Source: a phage. From it: DNA of 48,147 nucleotides. Each line of letters begins with the position of its first letter. Position 1 is the stretch's first letter. The notes beneath the pieces were generated by a model. It did not search any database. It had not been told where the DNA came from and was given only the letters and a program-made list of their open reading frames with translations. Location: sequence record PV636260.1; one strand, given 5' to 3'. This document shows, piece after piece, positions 28,133 through 45,510 of the stretch. The position numbers and the translations under genes are program-made.

Positions 28133-28181
28133 GGGCACTATATCAAATGCCCTTGAGCAAGTTTTAGCAATTCGTGCTATT
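28133..28181 (-). promoter_or_regulatory. repeated element (ATAGCACGAATTGCTAAAAC) plus hairpin with TATAGT
   Basis: Hairpin GGGCA-N10-TGCCC; element abuts the stop codon of 28180..28626. Confidence 0.55.
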
Positions 28182-30285: not shown

Positions 30286-30335
30286 AAGGCCACTATATCA
30301 AATGGCCTTGCGGAAGGTTTAGCAATTCGTGCTAT
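30286..30335 (-). promoter_or_regulatory. repeated element plus hairpin with TATAGT
   Basis: ATAGCACGAATTGCTAAAC; hairpin AAGGCCA-N10-TGGCCTT. Confidence 0.55.
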
Positions 30336-31577: not shown

Positions 31578-31629
31578 GTGGTTACTATATCGCAACCACA
31601 TGATCGCGTTTTAACAAAAAGTGCTATTT
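31578..31629 (-). promoter_or_regulatory. repeated element (ATAGCACTTTTTGTTAAAAC) plus hairpin with TATAGT
   Basis: Hairpin GTGGTT-N10-AACCAC. Confidence 0.55.
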
Positions 31630-39950: not shown

Positions 39951-39990
39951 GCCCGAATCCCTTCGGGCGTTTTTATCAATTAGTGCGATC
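39951..39990 (-). promoter_or_regulatory. variant repeated element (GCACTAATTGATAAAAAC) plus hairpin
   Basis: Hairpin GCCCGAA-N4-TTCGGGC followed by TAGTAA. Confidence 0.45.
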
Positions 39991-41131
39991 CTGTCATTTC
40001 TGGACGATAGATGAAGCGACCTATTTCCCCAAACTGCTTATCGTAAACAATTACAGCCGCTTGGCGATATGAGCGCCACCCTCCGCGTGCTGCGTATGCA
40101 TCTTTCGCGCCTAACTGACCGTGCACTTCATCAATACCAAGCGAGTGCTCAGTGATTGTCTGGTGATGCCAGTGACCACTATGAGTATACACATACTTGC
40201 TCTCGCCGAAGTCTGATCGGAAATCTGCGGCCATTGCTGCAAGTCGCGTGTCTGCCTTTTTCATAGTGTGCCCGTGAGTGTATCCCAACAAGGTATTTCC
40301 CCAACGAGTCTTATGCAGAATCATAGGACTAACGTCAACGAATACTCGCGGCTCGTCTTCATAATATGCCGACATTGCAGCGCGTAGCCAAATCATCCCT
40401 GCCTGGTCGTGGTTCCCTTCGATAACCTGGACTTCGACTTCCTTGTGTTTCAGTAGCATTTTGTCGATAGCGCGACGAACAGATCTAATAGCTACATGCA
40501 CCAATTTTGCATATCGTGAATCCTGATCCAGAACGTGACCACTTGCCGGGGTAACAGCATCAAGACCGTCCGAGTGAAGGAAGTCACCGCCGATTAAAAG
40601 AACGGCCTTCTCTGCGTTCGGAGCAATATCGATCGCGTAATTAAAGAAGTCGCTAAGCACTTTTTCCGCTACGTCGGTAGAGTAGTTCTCTCCACATTCA
40701 TGCTTATGAGCAAGCGCGCCAATGTGAAGATCGAATACCGGGTAGAGTGCCAGCTTGCCAATAGCGGTTGTAAGACCTTGCGATGTGAGTAGCTCAGTTG
40801 GCTTTGCTCGCGGCAAGTCTTCACAAAATGCAATGCGTGCAGCTTCCATCATAGCGGCAATCTTCTCACGGTCCTGATCGGTCTTAACCCATCGCACGAC
40901 CTCAGTCCCATCACCGCGAATCATTGTTGATGTGCCTTTTACCATGAAGCCTTCAGGAACGTTTTTAGCAACATGCTCATTGCCGTGAAAGTGGCCTTCT
41001 TTTGCCAATTTTGCGTGTCGAGCCTCAACAGTGCGAATATGCATACCGTACTTTTCCGCGATCTCGCGAAGTGTAAGTCCGTTCATACGTTCTTCGATAA
41101 GTTGCTCGGTAGTGATTTTAGCTTGTGACAT
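39980..41131 (-). CDS. calcineurin-like metallophosphoesterase with N-terminal HTH domain
   Basis: HTH-like LTLREIAEKYGMHIRTVEARHAKL; phosphoesterase motifs GGDFLH and GNHD. Confidence 0.7.
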   Translation of the reverse strand: MSQAKITTEQLIEERMNGLTLREIAEKYGMHIRTVEARHAKLAKEGHFHGNEHVAKNVPEGFMVKGTSTMIRGDGTEVVRWVKTDQDREKIAAMMEAARIAFCEDLPRAKPTELLTSQGLTTAIGKLALYPVFDLHIGALAHKHECGENYSTDVAEKVLSDFFNYAIDIAPNAEKAVLLIGGDFLHSDGLDAVTPASGHVLDQDSRYAKLVHVAIRSVRRAIDKMLLKHKEVEVQVIEGNHDQAGMIWLRAAMSAYYEDEPRVFVDVSPMILHKTRWGNTLLGYTHGHTMKKADTRLAAMAADFRSDFGESKYVYTHSGHWHHQTITEHSLGIDEVHGQLGAKDAYAARGGWRSYRQAAVIVYDKQFGEIGRFIYRPEMTGSH

Positions 41132-41209: not shown

Positions 41210-41611
41210 TCATGCCACAGCCTTTAACCAGAATCCTAGATCTGAAGATTTAAACTCAACTAGTTTTCCATCAACCTCAAGCATCATACTGTTTCTACCT
41301 GGTGAGTAATAACCTATATGCAACTCTTGCTCGATCCCAATAGTGCAAAGCACGTTAACGAAGTCAGGAGGCAACCAATCAGAGAAAGGGATTTGCTTAA
41401 CCTGCTTCTTTCCGATCCATATAGTCTGGTAATCTTCTTCGTTAATGTTTAAGCCTGGAAGACTTGTTGTTCTTTGATGTTTTTCGTTCTCGCTCAATTC
41501 TCTTTCCCTCTTCACGATAAAACTCAAGTGACGGAGTTGCTGGCACTCTATGCATTTTTCTCGGCATATCCTCCATAAATGAAATCTTGCCATTTGAGAT
41601 AATGCTAACAT
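41210..41611 (-). CDS. hypothetical protein (frame B; overlaps 41442..41714 out of frame)
   Basis: ORF track; start unclear. Confidence 0.35.
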   Translation of the reverse strand: MLALSQMARFHLWRICREKCIECQQLRHLSFIVKRERELSENEKHQRTTSLPGLNINEEDYQTIWIGKKQVKQIPFSDWLPPDFVNVLCTIGIEQELHIGYYSPGRNSMMLEVDGKLVEFKSSDLGFWLKAVA

Positions 41612-41714
41612 CCTTTATATCGAAATATTTCGCTATTAGTGCTATATCGTCTGAGATTCCGCACTCCTTCGCGTGCTCCCAAACCTCTCGTTTACCTTGT
41701 TTTTTTATCAGCAT
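41442..41714 (-). CDS. hypothetical protein (frame A)
   Basis: RBS GGAGAA before ATG 41714; the C-terminal third is low-complexity basic. Confidence 0.4.
   Translation of the reverse strand: MLIKKQGKREVWEHAKECGISDDIALIAKYFDIKDVSIISNGKISFMEDMPRKMHRVPATPSLEFYREEGKRIERERKTSKNNKSSRLKH
41627..41646 (-). promoter_or_regulatory. intragenic copy of the repeated element (ATAGCACTAATAGCGAAAT)
   Basis: Sequence match inside frame A, just upstream of the frame B start. Confidence 0.35.
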
Positions 41715-41901
41715 TGGTTAGTTTCTCCACGCTTTCAATAAAACACTCAACATCTTTGACTGAGCAGAGGTAATAAGCCATTTTAAGGAAGTTCATAGCA
41801 ATATCCCAATCAAAGTTACCGCCTTTCTTGTCAGTGATATGAACAGCCATTTTTGCGGACTGTTGAGCGATATTGAAAAAGTTTGCGTTAATGCGTGCCA
41901 T
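41692..41901 (-). CDS. hypothetical protein (start revised to ATG 41901)
   Basis: RBS GAGGAATCAGAAG. Confidence 0.5.
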   Translation of the reverse strand: MARINANFFNIAQQSAKMAVHITDKKGGNFDWDIAMNFLKMAYYLCSVKDVECFIESVEKLTNADKKTR

Positions 41902-41938
41902 CTTCTGATTCCTCATTTCGTTTCTATGAAATAACTAT

Positions 41939-41977
41939 ACCCGACTTTCGCCGGGTATTTTTAGCAATTAGTGCTGT
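41939..41977 (-). promoter_or_regulatory. repeated element (AGCACTAATTGCTAAAAAT) plus hairpin, TATAGT after the hairpin
   Basis: Hairpin ACCCG-N8-CGGGT. Confidence 0.5.
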
Positions 41978-42961: not shown

Positions 42962-43002
42962 GCCAGATTCCATTCCGGCATGTTTAGCAAAAAGTGCTAT
43001 TT
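42962..43002 (-). promoter_or_regulatory. repeated element (ATAGCACTTTTTGCTAAAC) plus hairpin upstream of dam
   Basis: TAG stop of the VRR-NUC gene lies within the element. Confidence 0.5.
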
Positions 43003-45488: not shown

Positions 45489-45510
45489 GTTTTTAGCAAA
45501 AAGTGCTATA
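45489..45510 (-). promoter_or_regulatory. repeated element (ATAGCACTTTTTGCTAAAAAC) upstream of the helicase
   Basis: Its -10-like TATTAT is the complement of the plus-strand TATAAT region. Confidence 0.5.

Follow-up and report, generated by a model that had tools for sequence, protein, structure and literature searches.

The closest described counterpart of the locus analysed here is found in phage T1 (GenBank AY216660), in which CPTT1_062 (WBY66054.1, 90 aa) and CPTT1_063 (AAP49982.1, 'Orf 17', 95 aa) lie in the same order, with the same lengths, a TTG start codon for the second gene, annotated ribosome binding sites (RBS) and an overlap of 56 nt. Pairs of the same two protein families, in the same synteny between a Dam methylase and an SbcD-like exonuclease, are gp55/gp56 of Rogue1, gp47/gp46 of NBD2, gp05/gp06 of Ec_L1 and rtp59/rtp60 of Rtp, where likewise the first protein ends in a basic tail and the second opens at an LPGL motif. 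T1-like phages also carry a 21-nt direct repeat, aaATAGCACnnnTTGnTAAAA, typically found some 76 nt 5' of start codons, for which no function has been demonstrated in the literature (PMC11447400).

The window, i.e. the whole stretch of 48,147 nt that was analysed (PV636260.1), is the DNA of a T1-like phage of the genus Tunavirus and contains such a pair, ORF1 and ORF2, on the minus strand between the genes for Dam methylase and an SbcD-like exonuclease. The T1 pair differs from it by point substitutions only; the identity to T1 is 93% for ORF1 and 86% for a 133-aa long version of ORF2 used as tblastn query. The arrangement is thus already known, as the exact pair with its RBS features is present in the T1 record. 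The genes of the block to which we refer below are:

41442-41714, minus strand: ORF1, 90 aa, taken from the list of open reading frames; homologue of T1 CPTT1_062; phrog_2817
41210-41497, minus strand: ORF2 as very probably expressed, 95 aa, TTG start; homologue of T1 gp17 (CPTT1_063); phrog_4596
41692-41901, minus strand: upstream small gene, 69 aa, starting at ATG 41901; homologue of T1 Orf 18; phrog_2180
39980-41131, minus strand: gene for an SbcD-like DNA repair exonuclease, downstream of the pair and closing the gene block; its match to Pfam Metallophos is weak
41725-41728, minus strand: Shine-Dalgarno (SD) sequence GGAG of ORF1, anti-SD duplex of -6.4 kcal/mol at a spacing of 9 nt

The SD sequences of the neighbouring genes range from -5.9 to -6.4 kcal/mol. 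In the upstream small gene, which shares 23 nt with the start of ORF1, the SD reaches -6.3 kcal/mol at ATG 41901 compared to +0.1 kcal/mol at ATG 41916. The sequence-only reading had credited ORF1 with a good RBS and a basic C-terminus, and both features were confirmed: the T1 annotation carries an RBS at the position homologous to GGAG, and ten of the final 24 residues are K or R. In a PHROG search, residues 3-77 of ORF1 matched the phrog_2817 profile with an E-value of 1.5e-32. The match to Pfam DUF7334 (17.5 bits) is below the gathering cut-off of 27 and covers residues 6-31 alone, and PF24022 is carried by some ORF1 homologues. The protein has a core formed by residues 1 to about 62 and, behind it, a basic C-terminal helix (residues 63-88 in an AF2 model with a pLDDT of 81), and codons 1-72 have a dN/dS of 0.01-0.02.

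Start of ORF2 and extent of the two-frame region

Two long ORFs had been pointed out at this locus, 41442-41714 (90 aa) and 41210-41611 (133 aa), which lie in different frames and share 41442-41611, i.e. 170 nt. This description of the ORFs is correct, the frame of ORF2 being +1 relative to ORF1, but the true coding overlap comprises 56 nt, and the statement that the second ORF lacks a convincing start turned out to be wrong, as the same frame contains TTG 41497 preceded by GAGGG. The elements concerned are:

41506-41510, minus strand: GAGGG, SD sequence of ORF2, 8 nt 5' of the TTG and inside the ORF1 codons of the conserved REEGKR motif
41442-41497, minus strand: 56 nt of true two-frame coding, with ORF1 residues 73-90 over ORF2 residues 1-19
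41498-41611, minus strand: 38 codons starting at ATG 41611 that seem to extend ORF2 N-terminally but are non-coding in the ORF2 frame

The anti-SD duplex of GAGGG reaches -6.3 kcal/mol at a spacing of 8 nt, which equals the median of the long ORFs in the window and corresponds to the 5th percentile among random 20-mers, compared to -3.4 kcal/mol or weaker for all other in-frame ATG, GTG or TTG codons of the ORF2 frame. The RNA around TTG 41497 folds more weakly than shuffled sequence (121-nt region, z +1.48), with the SD and the TTG in an open loop. Both elements are kept in 15/15 close relatives, in all of which the 16-mer 5' of the TTG is either GAAGAGGGAAAGAGAA or GAAGAAGGAAAGAGAA; the alternative starts ATG 41593, GTG 41515 and TTG 41374 are present in 3, 9 and 13 of these 15 relatives, respectively. 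In T1, an RBS is annotated at the position homologous to GAGGG, and automatic gene callers predicted 95 aa for ORF2 in 13/15 clusters. TTG is, on the other hand, a weak start codon.

The protein family is consistent with this start. In the PHROG search, the 95-aa product matched phrog_4596 with an E-value of 1.4e-37, residues 12-94 aligning to positions 2-84 of the 85 profile positions, so that the profile match begins at residue 12. The family motifs LPGL (N-terminal), IPFSDWLPPDF, YSP and WLK are all present, and P14, I36, P37, F38, W41, P43, D45, S65, P66, W90 and L91 are invariant or nearly so among 46 ORF2 sequences. Residues 1-10 are disordered in the AF2 prediction. The roughly 70 ORF2 homologues have lengths of 78-96 aa, except for one annotation of the same locus with 133 aa and one 48-aa fragment. 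A shorter product of 54 aa starting at TTG 41374, as annotated in SH2, was rejected, since it would lose the invariant LPGL and IPFSDW motifs; furthermore, there is no SD at this codon (-0.9 kcal/mol), which is CTA in 2/15 relatives. The family phrog_38834 appears to have been built from such truncated 54-aa calls. We found no proteomics, ribosome profiling, transcription start site or other expression data for T1-like phages in the literature.

The distribution of substitutions follows the ORF2 frame from 41497 onwards. In the extension (41611-41498), 14 of the 16 variable sites fall on ORF1 position 3, which is ORF2 position 2, and none on ORF2 position 3, whereas the latter accounts for 9/17 variable sites in the overlap (41497-41442) and for 38/57 downstream of it (41441-41210). 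Accordingly, the ORF2 frame of the extension has a pS of 0.000, and the dN/dS of ORF1 there is 0.02; in the overlap, dN/dS is 0.39 and 0.32 for the two frames, and 3' of it, ORF2 has a dN/dS of 0.08. Strong purifying selection is thus seen in neither frame of the overlap, and the last 18 residues of ORF1, whose tail ends in ...IERERKTSKNNKSSRLKH (...SSRLKH) opposite an ORF2 stretch that includes the conserved LPGLN motif, may or may not be functional. When ORF1 was resampled synonymously, the +1 frame was open for at least 39 codons 5' of the TTG in 49% of 20,000 samples, and the length of 170 nt is therefore no more than expected by chance. The other 114 nt that the 133-aa ORF comprises are the +1 frame of ORF1, stop-free by chance.

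We consider it very improbable that ORF2 is translated in its full 133-aa form, from ATG 41611 or ATG 41593, and that all 170 nt are truly read in two frames. In agreement with such a product, no stop interrupts the frame from 41611 onwards in any of the 15 close relatives, 133 aa are annotated in one GenBank record (LeonhardEuler bas13_0037), and tblastn alignments of the 133-aa query reach back to residue 17-22 in three distant phages. ATG 41611 itself is conserved in 15/15 close relatives, which is explained by the ORF1 codons GAT-GTT. The extension, however, is free of any synonymous change and has most of its variable sites at the second codon position, and an open frame of this length would occur by chance in about every second case. 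In addition, the SD sequences of both codons are unusable, with -2.8 kcal/mol at a spacing of 0 for ATG 41611 and -3.4 kcal/mol at a spacing of 13 for ATG 41593, and the latter codon is ACG in 12/15 relatives. This ACG also led us to dismiss ATG 41593 as a leaderless start on a transcript that an internal repeat module might hypothetically provide. In two divergent relatives, L044 and L045, whose ORF2 products are 54% and 47% identical, both the TTG with its SD and the overlap of 56 nt are kept, but stops close the ORF2 frame 25 codons (L044) and 6 codons (L045) 5' of the TTG. Moreover, ATG 41611 is absent in IME347 and BrunoManser (codon GAC), and the homologues in other genera begin at M-x-LPGL.

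These results strongly favour two separate small early genes, with ORF2 translated from TTG 41497 to give 95 aa and a true overlap of 56 nt. The gene boundaries, the conservation, the selection pattern and the lack of fusions, on which this explanation draws, were observed directly. Ribosomes would load on ORF2 independently, 56 nt 5' of the ORF1 stop, since the SD GAGGG sits in the REEGKR codons of ORF1. The TTG start may lower the output of ORF2, and the basic tail of ORF1 is read out of frame over the disordered N-terminal extension of ORF2 and its LPGLN motif.

Separate genes, frameshifting and sequencing errors

Scans of IMG/VR gave just 8 distant loci, and the wider taxon sample was drawn from GenBank records and Logan contigs. 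The junction was compared in 11 genomes, all of which have an SD and a start of their own for ORF2. In these 11 genomes, the ORF2 family member is a stand-alone gene located after the phrog_2817 gene and 5' of the gene for the SbcD-like exonuclease. Outside the Tunavirinae, six of the genomes (four assigned genera plus two without genus assignment) encode the two proteins individually, with 77-127 aa and 83-85 aa, the genes meeting at ATGA. Among about 70 relatives of ORF2 and 154 of ORF1, we detected no fusion of the two, except in the error-ridden singleton contig P0135. Its 132-aa product contains three frame changes, two of which were traced by eye to runs of A and the third of which is presumed.

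A single gene, split in the window by an indel introduced during sequencing or assembly, had also been proposed. Overlap of short ORFs out of frame is a classic signature of such errors, and homopolymer indels do occur in this region of the public contig P0135. This possibility is practically negligible. A total of 14 other loci, which represent 13 distinct genomes because T1 is included twice, align collinearly with the window over 611 columns without gaps and with the same two frames, stops and starts, and 60/61 GenBank records span this region with 80-99% identity. A single uninterrupted ORF was not encountered in relatives; in each genus that was examined, the two families are encoded by separate genes.

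The idea of a programmed +1 (or -2) frameshift, which would join the N-terminal part of ORF1 to ORF2, perhaps beside the separate products, rested on the out-of-frame overlap and on the apparent lack of a good start at the 5' end of the long ORF2; it is very improbable. Frameshifting is used elsewhere in T1-like phages: the tape-measure chaperone genes CPTT1_038/039 of T1, which are of the lambda G/GT type, likewise consist of two out-of-frame ORFs on one strand. Such G/GT pairs, however, have a slippery heptamer, a second frame without independent start and a conserved frame relation, none of which applies here. Between 41442 and 41611, there is neither an X_XXY_YYZ heptamer in the ORF1 frame nor a homopolymer of at least 6 nt, and the sole A7 run (41700-41706) lies 5' of stops in the target frame. 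No stable structure that could stimulate frameshifting was found downstream in the above 121-nt region, and an Rfam search with E-values up to 1 gave no match. ORF2 has its own start. The relative frame of the pair is +1 in the Tunavirinae and +2 elsewhere, and therefore a frameshift signal cannot be conserved. Finally, no natural fusion of the two was seen among the homologues; P0135 is a singleton with three frame changes.

The repeat copy inside ORF1

A copy of the regulatory element had been noticed inside ORF1, just 5' of ORF2, and is indeed present on the coding strand. The relevant features are:

41628-41644, minus strand: degenerate copy of the T1-like direct repeat, TAGCACTAATAGCGAAA compared to the consensus TAGCACnnnTTGCTAAA, in the ORF1 codons I-A-L-I-A-K
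41602-41607, minus strand: -10-like hexamer TAGCAT with 4/6 matches (including A2 and T6), 22 nt after the repeat copy; read from the sequence and not scored by a tool
41937-41976, minus strand: canonical repeat module heading the gene block, made up of CAGCACTAATTGCTAAA, a hairpin of 9 bp and, at a distance of 22 nt from TTGCTA, the downstream TATAGT

The internal copy has 2 mismatches at 14 specified bases and the orientation of transcription; it lies 33 nt 5' of ATG 41611 and 147 nt 5' of TTG 41497, within ORF1 and thus not in an intergenic region. Overall, the window contains 21 copies of TAGCACnnnTTGCTAAA with at most 2 mismatches, compared to 0.42 expected.

Several other candidates for a regulatory element, and two other readings of the repeat itself, were discarded. 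ATTTCAT, which occurs 24 times in the window compared to 14 expected and is clustered here with 4 copies, was dropped once the real repeat family had been found, and the palindrome CGAAATATTTCG (41621-41632) is unique in the window and thus not a repeated operator. The repeat resembles the sigma-54 consensus TGGCAC-N5-TTGC, but in TAGCAC-N3-TTGC the spacing is 2 nt too short. A T4 MotA box, which is located about 13 nt from the -10 element, was considered for TTGCTAAA, where this distance is 22 nt.

In addition to the two-gene explanation, and compatible with it, the repeat copy and TAGCAT might form an internal promoter or regulatory module, from which a transcript starting at about 41595 would supply ORF2 and the exonuclease independently of ORF1. 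We regard this as unlikely. The number of repeats in the window is far above the chance expectation, the internal copy is on the coding strand, and TAGCAT (TAGTAT in IME347 and L045) is at exactly the 22-nt spacing of the canonical copies. The copy has 1-3 mismatches in Tunavirus, where the 15 relatives show 5 haplotypes, 1-2 in other Tunavirinae-type genomes and none in L044 (P = 0.002 given the peptide), with TAG(C/T)AT always at +22 nt, compared to 4-7 mismatches, i.e. chance level, in other genera whose peptide is identical or almost so. Repeats inside genes are also known from phage TLS, where they make up 3 of 21 (PMC11447400). On the other hand, the 2 mismatches of the window copy include a change of TTG to TAG, and the probability of at most 2 mismatches, given the peptide IALIAK, is 0.16. 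The copy lacks a hairpin like the canonical 7-9 bp stems, as read from the sequences and not folded, and its distance to the TTG is about twice the typical one. Among the 15 genomes, 4 of the 14 specified positions of the copy vary, at synonymous sites, whereas the canonical module 330 nt upstream is nearly invariant between variable flanks. A sigma-70 scan of the minus strand between 41500 and 41700 reported no promoter.

The claim of a true overlapping pair with an internal promoter is thus valid with regard to the pair, which is real and conserved, but with a coding overlap of 56 nt (41442-41497) instead of 170 nt. It is unlikely that the internal copy is a working regulatory module specific to the Tunavirinae, which would produce a transcript for ORF2 and the exonuclease lacking the ORF1 start and would have been gained when the ATGA junction was replaced by an SD-driven start 29-56 nt inside ORF1.

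Comparison with other T1-like phages

The repeat described for TLS, aaATAGCACnnnTTGnTAAAA (PMC11447400), is matched by 41628-41644 in the direction of transcription with 2 mismatches, compared to 1 mismatch for the corresponding copy in ORF1 of T1. Canonical repeats are intergenic, and those of the window precede a hairpin and a -10-like hexamer; the hairpin is missing from the internal copy, which close relatives do not conserve. If functional, it would add one more data point on the still-unexplained repeat of T1-like phages.

The locus reveals no new mechanism, but it is of value for annotation. GenBank annotators differ in the length of ORF2, the same locus being entered with 54 aa in SH2, 95 aa in T1 and 133 aa in LeonhardEuler, and the comparative data fix the TTG start and the length of 95 aa. 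It also provides a small and clean example of a 4-nt ATGA junction growing into a 56-nt two-frame overlap, with the outcome that the tail of one gene is written over the conserved N-terminal motif of the other.

In most genera of the Drexlerviridae, the pair is joined at an ATGA stop/start. Rogue1, NBD2 and Ec_L1 have an overlap of 4 nt and Rtp a gap of 2 nt in place of the ATGA junction, with ATG or GTG at the junction and a frame offset of 2. In the window, the two genes share 56 nt, and the TTG precedes LPGL by 12 codons, with a frame offset of 1. Thus, a stop/start of the ATGA type (1-4 nt), as found in six other genomes, does not occur here, the ORF2 start lying 56 nt 5' of the ORF1 stop. 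The offset is 1 in the Tunavirinae, whereas the other seven genomes of the comparison have an offset of 2. In the Tunavirinae, a net 3n+1 indel at the junction would have moved the ORF1 stop downstream and the ORF2 start upstream. Overlaps in this group are 29, 32 and 56 nt, the intermediate ones being those of BrunoManser (Sertoctavirus, 29 nt) and IME347 (Badaguanvirus, 32 nt). As in the window, these two phages have a 90-aa ORF1, an offset of 1 and a basic tail, ...SRLKR, over the LPGLN codons, but in both of them the start of ORF2 is an ATG that precedes LPGL by only 3-4 codons, resulting in a shorter overlap.

Reading frames and the start of ORF2

For the 1.4 kb around the two ORFs, matches with 80-99% identity were found in 61 phage records of GenBank, nearly all of them from Escherichia or Shigella T1-like phages. 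On the minus strand, a Dam methylase gene is followed by three small genes, ORF1, the downstream gene ORF2 and an SbcD-like exonuclease gene (39980-41131). Residues 15-38 of this exonuclease gave weak helix-turn-helix matches (Sigma70_r4_2 and HTH_23, E about 0.01), with a weak metallophosphatase match C-terminal to them. The ORF listing contained:

41442..41714, minus strand: ORF1, 90 aa, ATG start
41210..41611, minus strand: ORF2-long, 133 aa, ATG start

The two frames share 170 nt (41442-41611), ORF2 being in frame +1 relative to ORF1, as stated in the sequence-only reading. The good ribosome binding site (RBS) and basic C-terminus reported there for ORF1 were likewise found, namely GGAG (-6.4 kcal/mol, spacing 9) and K or R at 10 of the last 24 residues. 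The claim that the second ORF has no convincing start did not hold. At ATG 41611, the Shine-Dalgarno sequence (SD) is not usable (-2.8 kcal/mol at spacing 0), and TTG 41497 is the only in-frame ATG, GTG or TTG with a proper one (GAGGG, 41506-41510, -6.3 kcal/mol, spacing 8). This strength equals the median of 33 long ORFs in the window (-6.2 kcal/mol), lies at the 5th percentile of random 20-mers and is comparable to that of the neighbouring genes (-5.9 to -6.4 kcal/mol). TTG 41497, the purine-rich 16-mer 5' of it and the TAA stop of ORF1 were each identical or equivalent in all 15 close sequences. The alternative ORF2 starts are less well kept in this set: ATG 41593 is replaced by ACG in 12 sequences, GTG 41515 by GCG in six and TTG 41374 by CTA in two.

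The close-relative alignment, consisting of the window and 14 other loci (T1 present twice), extended over 611 nt with zero gaps, which excludes the sequencing indel suggested as a cause of the out-of-frame arrangement.

Variable sites in the 611-nt alignment of close relatives
41714-41612: 20 variable sites, 17 at ORF1 position 3
41611-41498 (supposed ORF2 extension): 16 variable sites, 14 at ORF1 position 3 (= ORF2 position 2), 0 at ORF2 position 3
41497-41442: 17 variable sites, 9 at ORF2 position 3, 5 at ORF1 position 3
41441-41210: 57 variable sites, 38 at ORF2 position 3

TTG 41497 is thus the point where the wobble periodicity changes frame. dN/dS values calculated according to Nei-Gojobori agree with these codon-position counts: 0.01-0.02 for ORF1 up to 41498, 0.39 and 0.32 for the two frames of the true overlap, and 0.08 for ORF2 downstream of it; across the supposed extension, the ORF2 frame showed pS = 0 and pN = 0.068. 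When the ORF1 protein was held constant and its codons were resampled from the window's own codon usage (20,000 samples), the +1 frame extended 39 or more codons back from the TTG without meeting a stop in 49% of the samples, so the long open frame is unsurprising. The two genes share 56 nt of coding sequence; the figure of 170 nt arose because the first ATG was taken in a frame open by chance.

Fusion and frameshifting

Programmed frameshifting, by which a +1 shift would join ORF1 to ORF2, was also considered in the sequence-only reading and is not supported. The overlap contains neither a slippery heptamer nor a homopolymer run in the frame of ORF1, and the only A7 run (41700-41706) is followed by stops in the target frame. 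This run is part of a 23-nt overlap (41692-41714, minus strand) between the end of the upstream 69-aa gene and the start of ORF1. The folding of the 121 nt around TTG 41497 is weaker than that of shuffled sequence (z +1.48), and both SD and TTG are unpaired in the predicted fold; an Rfam search gave no match.

Two separate genes, rather than a single uninterrupted ORF, were found in the compared genera. Among 5.8 billion proteins, 60 clusters of ORF2 homologues were identified by profile search. All measure 78-96 aa, with two exceptions: a 48-aa fragment and a 133-aa annotation, the latter of this same locus. When 1.84 billion representatives were scanned exhaustively with HMMER, 15 ORF2 matches were obtained, each of 78-95 aa and beginning at query residue 11-31, mostly 11-15. 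ORF1 had 154 homologues; the 120 listed measure 74-91 aa, except P0101 (99 aa) and P0135 (132 aa). P0135, from a singleton Logan contig, joins the upstream gene to ORF1 and ORF1 to the ORF2-long frame, which it leaves again further on. Read against the window sequence, its first two frame changes fall at A-runs, apparently as single-base deletions, and the third is presumed alike; we read this fusion as a probable assembly error or product of homopolymer sequencing errors.

By tblastn, the ORF1 family was widespread, with matches in 846 phage records. The predicted fold of ORF1 (pLDDT 81) combines a strand and two helices with a beta-hairpin and a long basic helix spanning residues 63-88; for ORF2, the prediction is a small all-beta domain plus disorder at residues 1-10 (pLDDT 84).

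The repeat copy inside ORF1

41628-41644, minus strand: internal repeat copy inside ORF1, 2 mismatches to TAGCACnnnTTGCTAAA
26868-26884, 28163-28179, 30318-30334, 31610-31626, 41960-41976, 42983-42999 and 45492-45508: example copies of TAGCACnnnTTGCTAAA

The regulatory element noticed inside ORF1 is indeed a copy of the repeat TAGCACnnnTTGCTAAA, of which the window holds 21 copies at no more than 2 mismatches (0.42 expected), oriented with transcription. The repeat was published for TLS as aaATAGCACnnnTTGnTAAAA, with 21 copies, three of them within genes, that precede start codons by about 76 nt, and according to the TLS authors T1, Rtp and Rogue1 carry it as well (PMC11447400). The about 21 window sites share a fixed architecture. 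In at least 12 copies, a -10-like hexamer, mostly within a hairpin, follows TTGCTA by exactly 22 nt, a spacing exceeding what a sigma-70 -35/-10 pair allows. The hexamers are TATAGT or TATAAT-like, often preceded by TG; the hairpin is formed by the spacer and bases 3' of the hexamer, its stems vary by copy yet remain complementary, and the loop frequently reads TTTGATATAG. The T1 GenBank record labels these hairpins as rho-independent terminators. We found no description of the fixed 22-nt spacing or of its link to a hairpin in the literature, though the repeat itself is published (PMC11447400).

The internal copy covers the ORF1 codons for I-A-L-I-A-K, which most of the genera examined conserve as a motif. 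With this peptide held fixed, synonymous resampling gave probabilities of 0.16, 0.03 and 0.002 for at most 2, at most 1 and 0 mismatches, respectively. Tunavirinae-type genomes carry 0-3 mismatches (0 in the divergent relative L044, 1 in T1 and IME347, 2 in the window) and other genera 4-7. The perfect repeat of L044, TAGCACTTATTGCTAAA (Logan contig DRR001793_12, 1040-1075), occupies those codons of the ORF1 homologue that correspond to the ones covered in the window (P 0.002). A TAGCAT hexamer is present at +22 of the internal copy, the hairpin is absent, and a sigma-70 scan found no promoter there. Of the suggested overlapping pair with an internal promoter, the pair stands and the promoter is a weak possibility. 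Among 15 close genomes, the internal copy occurs in five haplotypes; the canonical intergenic module (41937-41976) is almost invariant with variable flanks. From these patterns we conclude that in Tunavirus the internal copy is free of the canonical constraint; the probability of a weak or ancestral function in Tunavirinae is low. A perfect 12-bp palindrome, CGAAATATTTCG, occurs once in the window, inside ORF1 (41621-41632); T1 has AAATACTTTGAT at this place, so that the palindrome is not conserved there, and it is probably incidental.

Annotation and junctions in related phages

ORF1 and ORF2 do overlap as genes, but the pair is an ordinary one and was annotated before in T1. The re-annotated T1 record (AY216660) has the same arrangement as the window, with CPTT1_062 (90 aa), CPTT1_063 (95 aa), an RBS feature and the same 56-nt overlap, which ranks second among the annotated same-strand overlaps of T1 (longest, 91 nt). 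CPTT1_063 is 'Orf 17' of the 2004 T1 paper, according to this record. CPTT1_062 (WBY66054.1; 40239-40511) seems to have been missing from the 2004 annotation and added at re-annotation, because it bears no 'Orf no.' note. The ORF2 locus (window 41210-41611) is recorded as 54 aa in KY985004 (SH2), 95 aa in AY216660 and 133 aa in LeonhardEuler (bas13_0037), and phrog_38834 (54 positions) appears to derive from truncated ORF2 calls without the conserved LPGL and IPFSDW motifs.

Two divergent relatives on Logan contigs, L044 and L045, whose ORF2 is 54% and 47% identical to that of the window, retain a TTG at the equivalent place, a GAAGAAGG SD and the 56-nt overlap; upstream of the TTG, their ORF2 frame is closed by stops at a distance of 25 codons in L044 and 6 in L045. 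IME347 and BrunoManser, from two other Tunavirinae genera, have the same 90-aa ORF1, with ...SRLKR as its ending, but differ from the window in starting ORF2 at ATG, with overlaps of 32 and 29 nt. Read directly from the sequence, SSRLKH in the Tunavirinae tail of ORF1 is an out-of-frame reading of the conserved LPGLN codons of ORF2. In NBD2, Rogue1, Ec_L1, Yersinia YP10S2 and LF82-10, the two genes are instead joined by ATGA, with an ORF2 N-terminus of M-N/S-LPGL, and in PH1062 by GTGA (V-N-LPGL), whereas a 2-nt gap separates the homologues in Rtp; the relative frame is 1 in Tunavirinae and 2 in these six genomes and Rtp.
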